Source of the DNA: Longimicrobiales bacterium
GTDB taxonomy: Bacteria; Gemmatimonadota; Gemmatimonadetes; Longimicrobiales; Gaopeijiaceae
Length of the DNA: 64,000 bases
Direction: 5' to 3'
NCBI GenBank assembly: GCA_965249725.1
Contig: CBDFMQ010000002.1
Coordinates: 1,888,001-1,952,000 of the forward strand
Shown: positions 13,402 through 40,489 of the stretch, one piece after another
Layout of the letters: each line of letters starts with the position of its first letter
How positions within the stretch are numbered: position 1 is the stretch's first letter
Made by a program: the position numbers and the translations under genes
The notes under the pieces: model-generated
Told to the model about the DNA's origin: nothing
The model's input: only the letters and a program-made list of their open reading frames with translations
The model's database searches: none

Positions 13402-14703
13402 GTGGTGAAAGAACCGAGTTCGCGGGGAGGAGCGGGGTCGCACCCACCGGGACTCTACGTGCTGTTCTTCACCGAGATGTGCGAACGGTACAGCTTCTAC
13501 TCGATGCTGGCCATTCTCGTCCTCTATATGGACGAGGCCCTCCTGTTCTCGCAGAGCGAGATCGGTCAGGTGTACGGAGGCTACAACGCCGCCGTGTGGT
13601 TTCTCCCCCTTCTGGGCGGCGTGATGGCCGATCGACTCCTCGGCTGCCGTCGTGCGGTGTTCGTCGGTGGCATCTTGATGGCCGGTGGCCATCTCCTGCT
13701 CGCCCTCGAGAGCATTGCCACGTTCTACCCGGCGCTCGCGCTGCTCGCCTGCGGCGTTGGGTTATTCAAGCCCAGCGTGTCGACCCTTGTTGGGAATCTC
13801 TACCGCGACCGCCCGGCGCTCAGAGACGCGGGGTTCAACATCTTCTACATGGGCGTGAGTCTGGGTGGCATTGTGGCACCTTTTGCCGTGGCGTACCTCC
13901 GGGCCACGCGCGGGTGGGGGGCAGCGTTCGGTTCTGCGGCCGTCGCGATGTTCCTCTCGCTTGCGATCTTCGCCGCGTTTCGGCGGCACGTCGTCGATAG
14001 TGGTGCCGGAGCGCTGCGGGTCGAGGAGGGGGCGGACCTGTCGCCGGCCGAGGCGCGGGCCCGGCTGGTGGCGCTCCTCGTGGTGTTCATCATCATGATC
14101 CCGGTCTGGATTCCGACCTTTCAAATCGGCTTTACGCTGACCCTCTGGGCACGCGACAACGTTCAAACCTCGCTCCCGCCCGAGGTATTTCAGTCGCTCA
14201 ATCCGCTCACCATCGTGGCGGGCACGCCGCTGATTGTCGCGCTGTGGAGCCGCCTTAGGCTCCGGGACGCCGAGCCGCCTGGCTACGGTAAGATGTTTCT
14301 CGGCATCCTGATCATCACGGCTGGGGTGGCCGTGGTCGTGCTCGCCGGGCTAAGCGGTGGCGATACGGAACGGGTGTCCGTCGTGTGGCTGGTCGCTGCC
14401 ATGGTCCTGATGTCGGCTAGCGAGCTGTTCACCACGCCCCCGGGACTCGCAATGGTCACCCGGGTCGCTCCCCCGCAGATCCGCGGGACCCTGATGGGCG
14501 GTTGGTTCGTGACGCTCGCTGTGGCGGCCTACATTTCCGGATGGCTTGGCACCCTTTGGGACCGCATCCCGCACAGCCAGTATTTCATGCTGATCGGCGC
14601 GCTCACGACGATATCTGCGCTGGCACTGGCGTGGGCGGGCAAGCGGCTCGGCCCCGTGCTGTTGGCCGGGGCATCTAGAGCCGATGATTCGGTGGCCGGA
14701 TAG
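13402..14703 (+). CDS. Proton-dependent oligopeptide transporter (POT/PTR, MFS)
   Basis: 'LFFTEMCERYSFYSM' (ExxERF-like), 'GGVMADRLLG', 'GLFKPS..VGNLY', 'DAGFNIFYMG'. Confidence 0.92.
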   Translation: MVKEPSSRGGAGSHPPGLYVLFFTEMCERYSFYSMLAILVLYMDEALLFSQSEIGQVYGGYNAAVWFLPLLGGVMADRLLGCRRAVFVGGILMAGGHLLLALESIATFYPALALLACGVGLFKPSVSTLVGNLYRDRPALRDAGFNIFYMGVSLGGIVAPFAVAYLRATRGWGAAFGSAAVAMFLSLAIFAAFRRHVVDSGAGALRVEEGADLSPAEARARLVALLVVFIIMIPVWIPTFQIGFTLTLWARDNVQTSLPPEVFQSLNPLTIVAGTPLIVALWSRLRLRDAEPPGYGKMFLGILIITAGVAVVVLAGLSGGDTERVSVVWLVAAMVLMSASELFTTPPGLAMVTRVAPPQIRGTLMGGWFVTLAVAAYISGWLGTLWDRIPHSQYFMLIGALTTISALALAWAGKRLGPVLLAGASRADDSVAG

Positions 14704-14746
14704 AGAGGACGAGTACCGCTAAGACCCTGTAAGATCCGTTACGCGG

Positions 14747-14788
14747 GAAAAAGCCCCCAGATGTGAGCACATCTGAGAGCCGAGCGGA
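14747..14788 (-). repeat. Second copy of the tRNA-array terminator hairpin
   Basis: GAAAAAGCCCCCAGATGTGAGCACATCTGAGAGC matches 15185-15218 with 1 mismatch. Confidence 0.85.
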
Positions 14789-14853
14789 CTTTGAGGGCGA
14801 TCTGGCACGGAGTTCTGGCGTCAGACGTCCGCTCCACCCGTTCGGCGCCGCCG

Positions 14854-15105
14854 CTAGGGGCGTCCGAACCGCGTCTCGAATCGATCGAAGCGTCCTTCAA
14901 GGCGGTCGATTCGCTCGGCGTTCCCTGTCACGCCCTCGGCCACCGCACGCAGGTCGTGGCCCAACTGTTCTTGGCCCACCTCAACACGGGTCAGCTGATC
15001 ACCGTGCTCCTCGTAGATGCGGCCGACCATCTCGTAGTTTCGCGAGATCCCCTTCGCGTTCTCTTGGATCAGGGATCTCAGTTCCTGGAATTGCCGTCGG
15101 GTCAT
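14854..15105 (-). CDS. Small coiled-coil hypothetical protein
   Basis: 83-aa ORF with heptad-like 'ERIDRLEGRFDRFETRF' and a purine-rich RBS. Confidence 0.6.
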   Translation of the reverse strand: MTRRQFQELRSLIQENAKGISRNYEMVGRIYEEHGDQLTRVEVGQEQLGHDLRAVAEGVTGNAERIDRLEGRFDRFETRFGRP

Positions 15106-15184
15106 CGGTCCCCGGAGTGCTTGGAAGGCTCAGAAGCGCAATCTACGTATCGGGGCCGAGCTGGAACATGTCTGGTTGAGACAA

Positions 15185-15218
15185 GAAAAAGCCCCCAGAT
15201 GTGAACACATCTGAGAGC
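15185..15218 (-). terminator. Rho-independent terminator of the tRNA array
   Basis: Minus strand GCTCTCAGATGTG-TT-CACATCTGGGGGC followed by TTTTT, directly after tRNA-Ser(CGA). Confidence 0.85.
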
Positions 15219-15222
15219 TAAG

Positions 15223-15306
15223 CGGAGCCGGTGGGACTCGAACCCACAAGTCCTTTTGGGACGCCGGTTTTCGAGACCGGTGCAATACCAGTTATGCGAC
15301 GGCTCC
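15223..15306 (-). tRNA. tRNA-Ser(CGA)
   Basis: Cloverleaf with anticodon arm CCGGT-CT-CGA-AA-ACCGG, long variable arm, GGTTCGAGTCC. Confidence 0.93.
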
Positions 15307-15345
15307 ATGCTGTCGCGGGTGGGTCTAGGTGAAGTGTGTGTATAG

Positions 15346-15419
15346 TCGGGGCGCCCGGATTCGAACCGGGGACCTCTGCGTCCCGAACGCAGCGCTCTAC
15401 CGGACTGAGCCACGCCCCG
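15346..15419 (-). tRNA. tRNA-Pro(CGG)
   Basis: CGGGGCG..CTGCG-TT-CGG-GA-CGCAG..GGTTCGAATCC..CGCCCCGA. Confidence 0.95.
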
Positions 15420-15454
15420 ATTTACTGCAACAACGACACCGGTCTATTCCTACC

Positions 15455-15605
15455 GGCGCCCGGATGGAGCTGCGGTCGCCTTCGGCGATCCTCGCTCGTC
15501 TCGGCGGATACCACCTCGATCTTCGAAACCGACCCGCCGCCTCGGCTCGAACCGGGGACCTCTGCGTCCCGAACGCAGCGCTCTACCGGACTGAGCCACG
15601 CCCCG
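15455..15605 (-). pseudogene. Interrupted tRNA-Pro(CGG) copy 1 with an 81-nt T-loop insert (15466-15546)
   Basis: Identical to the intact tRNA up to GGTTCGA, then the insert, then ATCCGGGCGCC; last acceptor bases diverged. Confidence 0.88.
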
Positions 15606-15640
15606 AATTACTGCAACAACGACACCGGTCTATTCCTACC

Positions 15641-15792
15641 GGCGCCCGGATGGAGCTGCGGTCGCCTTCGGCGATCCTCGCTCGTCTCGGCGGTTACCTC
15701 CTCGGTCTTCGAGACCCTAACAGGCGCCTCGGCTCGAACCGGGGACCTCTGCGTCCCGAACGCAGCGCTCTACCGGACTGAGCCACGCCCCG
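15641..15792 (-). pseudogene. Interrupted tRNA-Pro(CGG) copy 2 with an 82-nt T-loop insert (15652-15733)
   Basis: Same layout as copy 1; tandem period 186-187 nt. Confidence 0.88.
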
Positions 15793-15868
15793 AATTCACA
15801 TCTGACCGCCCAAAACACGTTTCCGCGGAAACGTGACATACGGGAGCAAGCGGGCGGTACTTCCAACC

Positions 15869-15965
15869 ACGGGGTGGGATTGGCCGAGCTCCGCTCGTCC
15901 GTCTCGGCGAAGATCACCTCGATCTTCAATACCAGCCCGACGCCTCGGCTCGAACCGAATCCCAC
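15869..15965 (-). repeat. tRNA-Ser(GGA) 3' fragment with a 69-nt T-loop insert (15881-15949)
   Basis: GTGGGATTC-GGTTCGA-[GCCGAGGCG...CGCCGAGAC...]-ATCCCACCCCGT matches the 3' end of the adjacent Ser(GGA). Confidence 0.85.
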
Positions 15966-15990
15966 ACACTACGCATTCAAATACTTGAAA

Positions 15991-16074
15991 CGGACGGGGT
16001 GGGATTCGAACCCACGAGGGTGTTAACCCACACGATTTCCAATCGTGCGCCTTAAGCCGCTCGGCCACCCGTCC
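15991..16074 (-). tRNA. tRNA-Ser(GGA)
   Basis: CACGA-TT-GGA-AA-TCGTG anticodon arm, long variable arm. Confidence 0.95.
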
Positions 16075-16106
16075 TGGGGGAGAGCCGTTTGCGGGCTCTC
16101 AGGCAA

Positions 16107-16207
16107 CGGAGGGAGTGGGATGGGCCGAGCTTCGCTCGGCGGTCTCGGCGAAGATCACGCTGCTCTCCGAAGAACACCCTGCCGCCTCGGCTCGAACCGA
16201 ATCCCAC
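16107..16207 (-). repeat. tRNA-Ser(GCT) 3' fragment with a 70-nt T-loop insert (16122-16191)
   Basis: GTGGGATTC-GGTTCGA-[insert]-ATCCCACTCCCTCCG matches the 3' end of the adjacent Ser(GCT). Confidence 0.85.
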
Positions 16208-16233
16208 ATCCTACGCGTTCTCGTACCTCTTAG

Positions 16234-16317
16234 CGGAGGGAGTGGGATTCGAACCCACGCGGACTTGCGTCCAACGCCTTAGCAGGGCGTCGCCTTAAGC
16301 CACTCGGCCATCCCTCC
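16234..16317 (-). tRNA. tRNA-Ser(GCT)
   Basis: ACGCC-CT-GCT-AA-GGCGT anticodon arm. Confidence 0.95.
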
Positions 16318-16340
16318 CAGAGTGTGGTGTTCCTCACCAA

Positions 16341-16413
16341 TTGCCCCTCTAGGGCTCGAACCTAGACTCTCCGGAACCAGAATCCGGCGTGTTGCCAGTT
16401 ACACCAAGGGGCA
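16341..16413 (-). tRNA. tRNA-Gln(CTG)
   Basis: CCGGA-TT-CTG-GT-TCCGG anticodon arm. Confidence 0.95.
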
Positions 16414-16419
16414 CTTAAG

Positions 16420-16492
16420 AGCCACCTGTCGGATTTGAACCGACGACCCCGTCATTACGAGTGACGTGCTCTACCAACTGAGCTAAGGTGGC
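16420..16492 (-). tRNA. tRNA-Thr(CGT)
   Basis: CGTCA-CT-CGT-AA-TGACG anticodon arm. Confidence 0.95.
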
Positions 16493-16499
16493 AAAACAA

Positions 16500-16572
16500 T
16501 GGAGCCGAGGGGAATCGAACCCCTGACCTCAGCGTTGCGAACGCTGCGCTCTCCCAACTGAGCTACGGCCCC
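16500..16572 (-). tRNA. tRNA-Ala(CGC)
   Basis: CAGCG-TT-CGC-AA-CGCTG anticodon arm; G3:U70. Confidence 0.95.
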
Positions 16573-16619
16573 CCAAACTCGTCGGCCACCCGGCCATTTC
16601 CGCTGAGGGCCGCCTTTAG

Positions 16620-16693
<74 letters not shown>

Positions 16694-16726
16694 GATCCTG
16701 CCATGCCTGCCTGTTCCTACACTCAA

Positions 16727-16800
16727 CGCGCCCGGAGGGATTCGAACCCCCGACCTCCTGGTCCGTAGCCAGGCACTCTATCCAGCTGAGCTACGGGCGC
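16727..16800 (-). tRNA. tRNA-Arg(ACG)
   Basis: CCTGG-CT-ACG-GA-CCAGG anticodon arm. Confidence 0.95.
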
Positions 16801-16943
16801 ATAAATGAACTCGAAGACCACTCTTTTCGCGAGGCGATTTTGGTGCAGGGCAAGGCGCCCCGACTGAGGCGTACAAACGTACGCCGCAGGGAGGGTCGAC
16901 CGTAGTCCCGACGCCACCATGCGCCAAAAGCGTCCGCGAAAAA

Positions 16944-17027
16944 TGCCCACGACAGGACTCGAACCTGTACGCCGTTTCCGACACTGGTCCCTCAAACCAG
17001 CCTGTCTACCAATTCCAGCACGTGGGC
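16944..17027 (-). tRNA. tRNA-Leu(GAG)
   Basis: CTGGT-TT-GAG-GG-ACCAG anticodon arm, variable arm. Confidence 0.95.
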
Positions 17028-17064
17028 AAGTCTGCCTGAATCAAACCGAGTCGAGCAGCACAAA

Positions 17065-17149
17065 TGCTCGAGGAGGGACTCGAACCCTCACGGGGTTAAC
17101 CCCCACAGGGTCCTGAACCCTGCGCGTCTACCAATTCCGCCACCCGAGC
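17065..17149 (-). tRNA. tRNA-Leu(CAG)
   Basis: CAGGG-TT-CAG-GA-CCCTG anticodon arm, variable arm. Confidence 0.95.
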
Positions 17150-17164
17150 CTGATTCGAAAGCAG

Positions 17165-17237
<73 letters not shown>

Positions 17238-17277
17238 CTCCACACTTCACCTATGAACTTTCAAAAAGCACATCCAA

Positions 17278-17352
17278 CGGGGCTGACGGGACTTGAACCC
17301 GCGACCTCCGGTGTGACAGACCGGCACTCTAACCAAACTGAGCTACAGCCCC
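17278..17352 (-). tRNA. tRNA-Asp(GTC)
   Basis: CCGGT-CT-GTC-AC-ACCGG anticodon arm. Confidence 0.95.
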
Positions 17353-17365
17353 TTCCCTAAAAACT

Positions 17366-17434
17366 CCGGACTAAAAGTCCGGTTACTGCCCGGACTACGA
17401 AAGTCCGGTAACTGCTCCGGACTCGTAAGTCCGG
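17366..17434. repeat. Three tandem CCGGACT-Nx-AGTCCGG hairpins
   Basis: ccggactaaaagtccgg / ccggactacgaaagtccgg / ccggactcgtaagtccgg joined by t(t/a)actgc linkers. Confidence 0.9.
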
Positions 17435-17444
17435 TTCCTACCTA

Positions 17445-17516
17445 TGCCCTCACGGGGAATCGAACCCCGATTACCAGGTTGAAAACCTGGCGTCCTAACC
17501 GTTAGACGATGAGGGC
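17445..17516 (-). tRNA. tRNA-Glu(TTC)
   Basis: CCAGG-TT-TTC-AA-CCTGG anticodon arm. Confidence 0.95.
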
Positions 17517-17538
17517 GACCCCTCTATTCGTTTTCAAA

Positions 17539-17611
17539 CAGGCCCGGAGGGACTCGAACCCCCAACCCCCGGTTTTGGAGACCGGTGCTCTACCAGTTGA
17601 GCTACGGACCT
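17539..17611 (-). tRNA. tRNA-Trp(CCA)
   Basis: CCGGT-CT-CCA-AA-ACCGG anticodon arm. Confidence 0.95.
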
Positions 17612-17653
17612 CTGATTTCAAGTGACCGCGCCTGATGCGATCCGCACTGCAAG

Positions 17654-17726
17654 TGGCCAGGGGCGGAATCGAACCACCGACACCGCGATTTTCAGTCGCG
17701 TGCTCTACCAACTGAGCTACCTGGCC
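17654..17726 (-). tRNA. tRNA-Phe(GAA)
   Basis: CGCGA-CT-GAA-AA-TCGCG anticodon arm. Confidence 0.95.
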
Positions 17727-17955
17727 GACAAAAAAACCGCCCGAGGCCAGTTGGCTGCGGACGGTCTTGCGAGAGGTGCGGGCTCGAAGTCTCTAGCCGC
17801 GCCCCCCGACCGTCGTCGATCGCGAGCTAGACCACGTATCGGCCATCGTCCATCCGCGCGCCTGCGTGGCATCCGTCTGAAACATTCGGGCCGACTCCTC
17901 AATCCAGCTTCACCATCACATGGAAACGCCGCCCGAGGGCGGCGCTGAAACCAAA

Positions 17956-18029
<74 letters not shown>

Positions 18030-18040
18030 ATGAGAAGGAA

Positions 18041-18069
18041 AAGATATTCGAGATCTCAGAAAGGTTCAA
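18041..18069 (-). promoter_or_regulatory. Sigma70-type promoter for the tRNA array
   Basis: TTGAAC-N17-TATCTT ending 11 nt upstream of tRNA-fMet. Confidence 0.65.
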
Positions 18070-18141
18070 CCCCGATCTGCGTACCTGATCCTGCTAGATT
18101 CTAGGACTCGCAAGACCATGACTGTTAGAGGAGAAGCGATA

Positions 18142-18741
18142 ATGAAGGGACGTTGGAACTGGGCCATCGTGGGCGCCGTGCTCGCCCTACCCATGGCCGT
18201 CACCGCGCAGGAGCCCATGGGTGGAATGGAAGGCATGGAGGGCATGGACCCCGAGATGCAGGAGCGGATGCACACCCTGCACCTAGCCCAGGCGGGCGAC
18301 TTCGAGACCATGAGGGACAAGTTTCTCGCCCTTGCCGACGCGTTCCCCGAGGAGACCTGGGACTGGAGCCCGATGGAAGGCGTTCGGTCCGTCCGGGACG
18401 TGATGGCCCTGATTGTGGCCGAGGGATACCACTTCCCTTCGTCCTGGGGCGTGGAGCCTCCGGCCGGAGCCGAGAGCGGGTTCGGACCCGAGATGGAGCG
18501 GGTTGGCGCGATGTCGAAGAGCGAAGTCATCGCCGAGATGGAGAAGTCCTTCGACCATCTGATCACGACAACCAGCAATCTGACCCACATGCAGCACATA
18601 GGTGACGAGGCGGACTGGTTCGGCCGCAAGGTGTCGGTCGCCAACGCCATGATGCTCGCCGGCGGAGACATGCACGAGCACCTCGGGCAGTCGATCGCTT
18701 ACGCGCGCACGAATCACATCGTGCCGCCCTGGAGCCGGTAG
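18142..18741 (+). CDS. Secreted DinB family protein
   Basis: Signal peptide, 'WSPMEGVRSV', 'HEHLGQSIAYARTNHIVPPWS'. Confidence 0.85.
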   Translation: MKGRWNWAIVGAVLALPMAVTAQEPMGGMEGMEGMDPEMQERMHTLHLAQAGDFETMRDKFLALADAFPEETWDWSPMEGVRSVRDVMALIVAEGYHFPSSWGVEPPAGAESGFGPEMERVGAMSKSEVIAEMEKSFDHLITTTSNLTHMQHIGDEADWFGRKVSVANAMMLAGGDMHEHLGQSIAYARTNHIVPPWSR

Positions 18742-22627: not shown

Positions 22628-22701
22628 CGGGACGTGGCGCAGCTCGGTAGCGCACCTGAATGGGGTTCAGGGGGTCGCCGGTTCGAATCCGGCCGTCCCG
22701 A
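22628..22701 (+). tRNA. tRNA-Pro(GGG)
   Basis: CGGGACG..CCTGA-AT-GGG-GT-TCAGG..GGTTCGAATCC..CGTCCCGA. Confidence 0.95.
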
Positions 22702-24173: not shown

Positions 24174-24433
24174 CGGACACACGCACGGACACTCTTTTAG
24201 GGCCGGCAGAGTCCGGCATCCCCTCCCGCAAGAAACGGCAGATCGTGCACCCTACCAGTGATTTACACGGTTTCTTGCCGCCATTCGGCTAGTTGAAGGC
24301 TCGAATGGGGTTCAGGGGGTCGCCGGTTCGAGCCGAGGCGGCAGTGAGGCCTTCCGCGATGCGGCCAAAACACTCACCGCCGAGACGACCGGAGATCGCC
24401 GAAGGCGATCGGAGGTCAATCCGGCCGTCCCGA
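24174..24433 (+). mobile_element. att-like junction: element-end module plus tRNA-Pro(GGG) 3' half with an 87-nt T-loop insert (24332-24418)
   Basis: GAATGGGGTTCAGGGGGTCGCCGGTTCGA-[insert]-ATCCGGCCGTCCCGA; 24204-24314 is repeated at 37367-37477. Confidence 0.85.
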
Positions 24434-40262: not shown

Positions 40263-40489
40263 CTCCAATACGTTCTCCAATAGTTGACCCTCCTAGATGC
40301 CCGGAAACACCGATCCCGATCCCGGGCCATCCACTCCGAAACCGCACTGAAACCAGGCATTTCCCCGTGATTTGGCGTATAAGCTGTGGGGAATGGGTTT
40401 CAGGGGGTCGCCGGTTCGAGGCGAGGCGGCTGTGAGGTCTTCCGCGGTGTAGGTCAGATGCTCACCGCAGGTCAATCCGGCCGTCCCGA
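40263..40489 (+). mobile_element. att-like junction: arm-like repeats plus tRNA-Pro(GGG) 3' half (40391-40489) with a 55-nt T-loop insert (40420-40474)
   Basis: GAATGGGTTTCAGGGGGTCGCCGGTTCGA-[GGCGAGGCGG..CTCACCGCAGGTCA]-ATCCGGCCGTCCCGA; CTCCAATA direct repeats at 40263 and 40275. Confidence 0.82.

Follow-up and report, generated by a model that had tools for sequence, protein, structure and literature searches.

The window analysed here is a stretch of 64,000 nucleotides from a Longimicrobiales genome (G000; contig CBDFMQ010000002.1, positions 1,888,001 to 1,952,000). It carries a cluster of 17 intact tRNA genes, in which ARAGORN makes 19 calls with two twins counted in. Near the end of this cluster, two units stand on the minus strand before an intact tRNA-Pro(CGG) gene (Table 1), exactly as laid out, at 186-187 nt each, in a preliminary description of this DNA. 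Global alignment of the units yields 10 differences in all, namely eight substitutions and one indel in the core (32 and 31 nt) and a single difference in the spacer. The earlier statement that the differences are confined to a middle of about 32 nt is thus borne out (9 in the 32-nt core against 1 in the other 155 nt, Fisher p = 4e-7; core against spacer alone, p = 0.005), and both cores keep a central hairpin, as had also been noted. Plain duplication had been expected to scatter differences evenly, and we agree: duplication followed by point mutation cannot yield 9/32 against 1/155, so that a block exchange, whether by conversion or by independent insertion, is needed.

Excision of the insert would not give a chargeable tRNA, again in keeping with the preliminary description. 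Their acceptor stem retains 4 of 7 pairs (CGCCGGT against CGCCCCG), and removing the insert leaves an incomplete tRNA, which is not what a tRNA intron would leave. In addition, folding predicts that a fold-back hairpin ties up the 3' strand of the acceptor (RNA z = -2.43); the congeneric genome G001 keeps this hairpin with a different loop. The palindrome just upstream of unit 1 has close copies at G000:C3:148064 and 2413571 and is possibly a protein-binding site.

Table 1. Features of the tRNA-Pro(CGG) locus and related elements in the window
Feature	Position	Strand	Remarks
Unit 1, whole	15792-15606	minus	187 nt
Unit 1, tRNA part	15734..15792	minus	First 59 nt of tRNA-Pro(CGG), same as intact gene, ending in T-loop GGTTCGA
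Unit 1, module	15652..15733	minus	82 nt, RtT/TLR-type, at GGTTCGA^ATCC; first helix (P1) with a variable extension, second helix (P2) closed by a GAA triloop; model R1 90.2 bits (this copy belonged to the R1 training set)
Unit 1, variable core	15693..15724	minus	7-nt left loop, capped hairpin, 11-nt right loop
Unit 1, tail	15606..15651	minus	11-nt copy of tRNA 3' part (acceptor broken), fold-back hairpin, spacer
Unit 2, whole	15605-15420	minus	186 nt
Unit 2, tRNA part	15547..15605	minus	First 59 nt of tRNA-Pro(CGG)
Unit 2, module	15466..15546	minus	81 nt; model R1 89.6 bits
Unit 2, core	15537-15507	minus	Ancestral-like; G001, with one unit, differs by 3
Unit 2, tail	15420..15465	minus	11-nt copy of tRNA 3' part, fold-back hairpin, spacer
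Intact tRNA-Pro(CGG)	15419-15346	minus	67.7 bits; both units stand ahead of it
Module behind tRNA-Ser(GGA)	15877-15956	minus	In a classic downstream TLR
Module behind tRNA-Ser(GCT)	16118-16198	minus	In a downstream TLR
Part of the tRNA-Pro(GGG) island region	22628-22701		
Displaced tRNA-Pro(GGG) 3' half with module	24325-24422	plus	Module in T-loop
Second displaced tRNA-Pro(GGG) 3' half with module	40413-40478	plus	Module internally deleted
Palindrome	about 15816-15835		About 20 nt, near-perfect; kept in G001
Hairpin/terminator-like repeat	14747-14788 and 15185-15226		42 nt, copies 93% identical
ORF between the 42-nt repeats	14854-15105		83 aa, no NCBIfam match
Three repeats of 26-nt period	17375-17442		Gap between tRNA-Glu and tRNA-Asp; unrelated to the module

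The insert is not tied to tRNA-Pro. It is an 81-82-nt two-domain hairpin module set into the T-loop at GGTTCGA^ATCC, with a scaffold that runs from an anchor through the variable core to a second anchor and a second helix, then ATC. A covariance model of it (R1) makes 19 matches in G000, and relatives occur across Gemmatimonadota, at the ends of Ser, Cys, Arg and Pro tRNA genes, in displaced tRNA halves and in integron attC sites. The constant scaffold around the core, earlier taken to be tRNA-derived, is instead this dispersed RtT/TLR-type module, of which four further copies within the window had been overlooked. The copy behind tRNA-Ser(GGA) consists of a reverse-complement tRNA end, the module and a copy of the 3' end of that tRNA; the downstream repeats hold 15 nt of the tRNA behind tRNA-Ser(GCT) and the full 3' end at tRNA-Pro(TGG) and tRNA-Arg(CCG).

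Other elements of the window deserve mention. The two displaced tRNA-Pro(GGG) 3' halves, each of which holds a module, bound stacked cargo islands; at a matching displaced half, G001 has two stacked modules (L166). A scan of 14 ORFs from the two islands that follow tRNA-Pro(GGG) revealed no integrase, nor does the genome-wide PF00589 list hold one for that range. The 42-nt repeat includes the last bases of tRNA-Ser(CGA), and its two copies, together with the ORF that they flank, are probably a mini-island at that gene.

Over 51 aligned modules, 96% of the cells of the proposed structure are paired and 17 of its 21 pairs show two-sided changes, although the covariation of P1 rests on four divergent rows, most rows having been picked by exact P1 anchors. 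None of 500 shuffles reached as high a pairing, and controls with slid partners were 24-44% paired. P1 carries tandem G-A mismatches, whereas P2 is closed in 49 of 65 modules by a GNA triloop, a motif that folds stably in single-stranded DNA and mainly in DNA. The variable core occupies the upper portion of P1, where a 7-nt left strand and an 11-nt right strand enclose a capped hairpin. The lengths of this 7+11-nt loop are fixed and its sequence varies; even so, 73 of the 77 distinct cores have C at position -12 and 70 have G at -6, and the loops are rich in purines (83% and 69%, three positions each). In other lineages simpler stems take its place (L163, L129 and L175). Taken singly, modules have unremarkable folding energies (z -0.2 to -1.7), and a search for pairing or identity between left and right loops gave best z values of 3.2-3.6 among 196 cells each, with no convincing signal. 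We take the core to be an internal loop that is under structural constraint and turns over fast, and not a guide.

An exact-anchor scan of GTDB returned 52 loci, 49 of them titled Gemmatimonadota or its subgroups, and the distribution is patchy, with the exact pattern in 7 of 41 relatives. Upstream tRNA-Pro(CGG) twins with an insert and 10-12 nt of the 3' part, all with a broken acceptor, are also present in G001, G024, G466, L173 and L175; across the order, 3 of 401 genomes showed the exact twin junction. Tallies such as these (7/41, 3/401) take in one unpublished genome, G025, on which no sequence claim rests. A model search across the phylum was positive in 5 of 81 genomes, a figure that is no estimate of prevalence, since in each genome just 51 candidates were scored out of several hundred to several thousand. 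Six pattern matches in viral contigs, none having a T-loop or P2, were taken as chance and, together with L033 and L090 (8 of 91 rows), removed before every count.

Single loci illustrate the range of forms. Behind tRNA-Ser(GGA) in G001 (L176) the downstream repeat is kept and the module is absent, two bases leading from GGTTCGA to ATCC, which is a near-precise module loss. In G002 a module-bearing repeat follows the apparent 3' end of the tmRNA gene (L164), so that the target appears not to be limited to tRNA genes. R1 matches in G063 (L123, L128) lie on the strand opposite to tRNA-Ser genes and have a simple P1 stem. The tRNA-Ser(TGA) region is found twice in the G000 assembly (C3:3783-4039 and 750846-751256), with one and two module units, respectively.

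The closest known counterparts are the tRNA-linked repeats (TLR/RtT) of Escherichia coli. The four repeats of tyrT-tyrV consist of a reverse-complement tRNA end, GGTTCGA, a 68-nt hairpin core, ATCC and a tRNA 3' end. Our module shares with them its place in a tRNA operon beside the cognate tRNA, the insertion of a multi-hairpin core between GGTTCGA and ATCC followed by a 3' copy of the neighbouring tRNA, a first helix with tandem G-A mismatches at the matching place, GNA-capped hairpins and tandem arrays. Likewise, the downstream module copies resemble TLRs in the reverse-complement tRNA end ahead of them, with a GGATGAGAACC-type leader in 13 of 71. The base of P1 in L011 is the same as in two of the four E. 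coli repeats over 14 of 14 nt, and R1 finds all four repeats, weakly (11.7-18.1 bits), at the same place in each. In spite of these likenesses, the Rfam RtT model (RF00391) has no match at E <= 10 in positions 14500-18200 of the window, nor in G000 among the 150 of 415 candidates scored, and the Rfam sX4 match is weak (22.9 bits against 70).

There are differences in build as well. The 3' end of an E. coli TLR is described as repeating 18-19 bp of the tRNA immediately upstream (PMC8144298), whereas the Pro units stand upstream of their tRNA and hold the whole 5' 59 nt of it but just 11 nt of the 3' part. The extension of P1, moreover, is 31-40 nt long with its 7+11 loop, where E. coli has a 4-nt loop, and the module occurs in attC sites and stacks too. 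In view of the Rfam result and of the missing 18-19-bp repeat, we regard the module as a variant rather than a formal member of TLR/RtT; it is built like the TLR/RtT core and probably homologous to it. TLRs were first described in 1978, and PMC8144298 lists 22 of them in K-12, gives them no known function and notes that the RtT phenotype was retracted; the mode of action of rttR is described as unknown (bioRxiv 10.1101/2024.07.17.603846).

The behaviour of the module outside tRNA genes bears on how it spreads. G000 encodes an integron integrase (IntI, 335 bits) and has an attC family of 96 nt, in which one complete filled site measures 165 nt and holds a clean 69-nt module at GCAGA^ATCGC. Under one regular expression, 21 attC right ends in G000 are empty and 4 are filled, and empty sites were present in all four genomes checked. 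With a stricter pattern, which the G000 copies miss, filled sites were found in 3 of the 121 genomes of the family (G001, G011 and G383). The module always occupies one and the same point of this attC family, at G000:C3:2595293-2595446 and in further attC copies at C3:2596580, 2601829, 970543, 757905 and 2275226. The targets in tRNA genes and in attC have GA^ATC in common and both lie within hairpins, and modules are also stacked head to tail with unlike cores (L049, L071, L072 and L166). The precise attC site beside many empty ones, together with this stacking, indicates that the module behaves as a mobile insertion, and a pairing of precise filled and empty sites is what a non-autonomous insertion element leaves behind.

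Comparison of orthologous sites in G000 and G001 adds a measure of turnover. Cores lie 3 nt apart at unit 2 of Pro(CGG) and in attC, and 12-15 nt apart at Cys, Ser(GCT) and Pro(TGG), a spread that looks like replacement rather than steady drift. The attC modules of G000 and G001 are nearly identical and may come from one insertion event; those of G011 and G383 are unlike them in core and P2, which suggests one or two events. The several attC copies of G000 were probably spread by attC recombination.

As for a mobilising enzyme, neither a Y1 HUH transposase in G000 (a genome 95.8% complete) nor a recurrent neighbouring gene family among 112 of the 136 candidate flanking ORFs at 51 loci was found. 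Unlinked candidates in G000 are IntI, 14 tyrosine recombinase matches, five IS110 matches, one weak IS91-type match and one reverse transcriptase. IS200/IS605 and REP/RAYT elements are small hairpin-ended units with precise insertion, no clear target duplication and a strand-specific fold; the module is like them in these respects and unlike them in that G000 has no Y1 and neither a cognate enzyme nor a guide tetranucleotide was found. IS1111-attC insertion sequences and group IIC-attC introns are attC parasites of over 1 kb with an enzyme of their own. The module parasitises attC sites as they do, but it is non-coding and 69-90 nt long.

Two further observations concern the attC sites and the integrase. 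The attC family that takes up the module is also a target, a few bases away, of an IS110-family element with sub-terminal inverted repeats (C3, about 2273760-2275220 and 754450-755910); by inspection, this element has no end sequence in common with the module. At G000:C3:1028977-1030607 (L115, L100), tRNA-Pro(TGG) and its module-bearing repeat are followed at once, on the same strand, by the integron integrase gene and then by attC cassettes.

The layout of the module, the covariation of its fold, the exact filled sites beside empty ones, its stacking and its turnover at orthologous tRNA genes make us lean, with moderate confidence, towards the TLR/RtT core being an undescribed kind of mobile single-stranded-DNA element that inserts at GA^ATC of folded DNA. 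A different use of the same fold has been considered, in which the units would be processed, structured RNAs from the tRNA operon, as RtT and RrA/B/F are in E. coli, and the fold would be kept for RNA function instead of DNA mobility. Folding of the sense strand is favoured as RNA (z -1.5 and -1.7 against -0.2 and -0.4), the G-T pairs lie on that strand, and TLR-derived RNAs are described as transcribed and processed in E. coli (PMC8144298). The 49 of 65 P2 loops that are GNA triloops, the copies in attC sites and displaced tRNA halves and the patchy distribution all count against RNA function as the main explanation, which we consider doubtful; such a function is, however, compatible with a mobile module and the two are not exclusive.

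Far less likely still is a guide function, which the preliminary description had raised for the variable segment. The 7-nt and 11-nt loops would then be paired guides for extra-genomic targets and the units a small guide array. IS110 bridge RNAs, IS1111 seekRNAs and TIGR arrays are guide systems with two variable segments, a hairpin and a constant scaffold, and the module is like them in its two short variable segments around a hairpin; the fixed loop lengths with varying sequence, the conserved C and G noted above and the different cores of stacked modules fit such a role. The segments, however, encode neither the insertion site nor a genomic site. Across 74 modules no offset matched a local target, with best identity about 35% against 26-30% expected and top z values of 3.6-4.2 at inconsistent offsets among several hundred tested, kinship being uncontrolled. 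The 12 cores of G000 match their own genome no better than 22 of the foreign cores do (mean best mismatches 2.0/2.1 against 2.0/2.0), and an 11-fold tie for the attC-type core dissolved into scattered chance matches. Searches of both cores against phages and of both whole modules against plasmids gave chance matches only (best E 0.3), though targets may lie in mobile DNA beyond these collections, and no linked effector or partner protein recurs among the flanking ORFs scored.

The composition and descent of the loops argue against guides as well. Their purine bias, the 4-nt loop that is all E. coli has at this place, the retention of cores by recent duplicates and the mere 6 differences between the unit 2 core and that of an unrelated metagenome contig (L174) all stand on that side. 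When loops from one tRNA type are compared between genomes, 7.1 of 18 nt agree, as against 6.4 at different sites (permutation p = 0.004 over 61 modules). The effect is small and is explained by descent; loops within one genome likewise share 7.1 nt (p = 0.014). The extended proposal, a mobile TLR/RtT core whose Gemmatimonadota 7+11-nt loop is a swappable bipartite guide, served by an enzyme in trans and arrayed against extra-genomic targets, appears to us just as improbable. Mutagenesis of adenines in the manner of a diversity-generating retroelement (DGR) is excluded by inspection, as the core changes include G/C and G/T.

These findings allow us to propose a model for the pair. Each unit would be a dead tRNA-Pro(CGG) twin whose T-loop holds an RtT/TLR-type tRNA-linked repeat core. 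The module would be a small, non-coding, non-autonomous insertion with a conserved fold that enters hairpin-forming DNA precisely at GA^ATC, be it in a tRNA T-loop, on the L-box side of attC or at the end of another module, and it may move as folded single-stranded DNA with a candidate enzyme acting in trans. The tandem pair would go back to a recent unequal recombination in which the tRNA part of a twin was joined with the intact gene. The core of unit 1 would have arrived as a block, swapped in by recombination between the P1 anchors, which are conserved, either earlier or later than the duplication. We give this whole account a probability of about two-thirds (0.68).

Genome G001 supplies the main reference. 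It has one unit, with a core 3 changes from that of unit 2 and 8 from that of unit 1, and with a spacer about a third different from both; unit 2 therefore appears ancestral-like, its core having changed less than the spacer. As for the single difference outside the core, unit 2 has the leader AATT as unit 1 does, while the intact gene has AAAT as in G001. An unequal crossover immediately 5' of the copied tRNA would leave this pattern, in which case there may have been no point mutation at all outside the core. The last base of P2 is common to both units and different in G001, which suggests that P2 was duplicated with the unit and that the exchange took place only between the P1 anchors. A search of 18 short-class cores for a donor to unit 1 found none, the nearest being 8 differences away.

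Other tandem pairs put this one in perspective. Fifteen loci entered the comparison and five gave no pair, among them L039 and L068 with different cores and diverged flanks. In the 12 other adjacent pairs (9 loci), nine have at most 2 core differences, one has 5/39 and two have 10-12 along with diverged leaders. The comparison among relatives that the preliminary description had called for thus goes largely against it: core-only divergence stands for this pair, but it is the exception in the family. The nearest parallel is the L055 pair, which leans towards a core-centred pattern (10/37 in the core, 1/54 downstream, 7/45 upstream). The two-core pair is probably a one-off recombination product, and a swap after duplication, a duplication between alleles and an old duplication with recent homogenisation all fit equally well.

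The last of these scenarios, taken as a full alternative, has the cores of an old duplication drift under structural constraint while recent conversion or unequal crossover homogenised the rest. The tRNA part of the twin is the same as the intact gene in both G000 and G001 although the spacer has diverged by about a third, which points to frequent local conversion; in addition, two of the unit 1 core changes convert G-T to G-C pairs in the hairpin, and L031 shows patchwork homogenisation. Since the split of G000 and G001, however, the unit 2 core has changed by 3/31 nt and that of unit 1 by 8, and a conversion tract would have to end exactly at both anchors. We hold this course of events, which departs from the preferred recombination account in timing only, to be unlikely.

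It is more improbable still that the pair is an assembly artefact joining two one-unit strain alleles. That G001 has one unit would agree with this, as would the probable origin of the genome in a metagenome assembly, judging from its kin, and no public contig in four sets from four studies runs across both units. Contig set X1 lacks coverage of both cores at the positions listed, and in X1 and X3 the summed contig depth of the shared part is roughly 3-4x that of the unique flanks, a depth that does not amount to copy number. Against an artefact, three contigs for 4.16 Mb suggest long reads, which would easily span 400 nt; tandem units are common in the family, and L175 opens in the last part of a second Pro unit lying upstream; and the leader at the internal junction is of the unit 1 type, which fits a crossover. 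Were the pair an artefact, the two alleles would still differ in the core only.

Taken together, the contrast between the two units is real, beyond chance and mostly explained by a Gemmatimonadota variant of the TLR/RtT core lodged in dead tRNA twins. What is new is the fixed-length 7+11-nt variable loop of the first helix and the presence of the module inside integron attC sites and in stacks; in the literature searched, which covered subscription journals thinly, we found no description of a TLR core as an insertion element or inside attC. Twins of this kind are miscalled as extra tRNA-Pro genes, as ARAGORN did with both. Within attC, the module lengthens the site by about 70 nt beside the L box and may alter cassette excision. 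Since clean filled and empty attC sites and stacks fix the exact ends of the core and its target, GA^ATC, mobility becomes testable, and the long-standing puzzle of the TLRs is recast as a question about a small mobile element and its enzyme.
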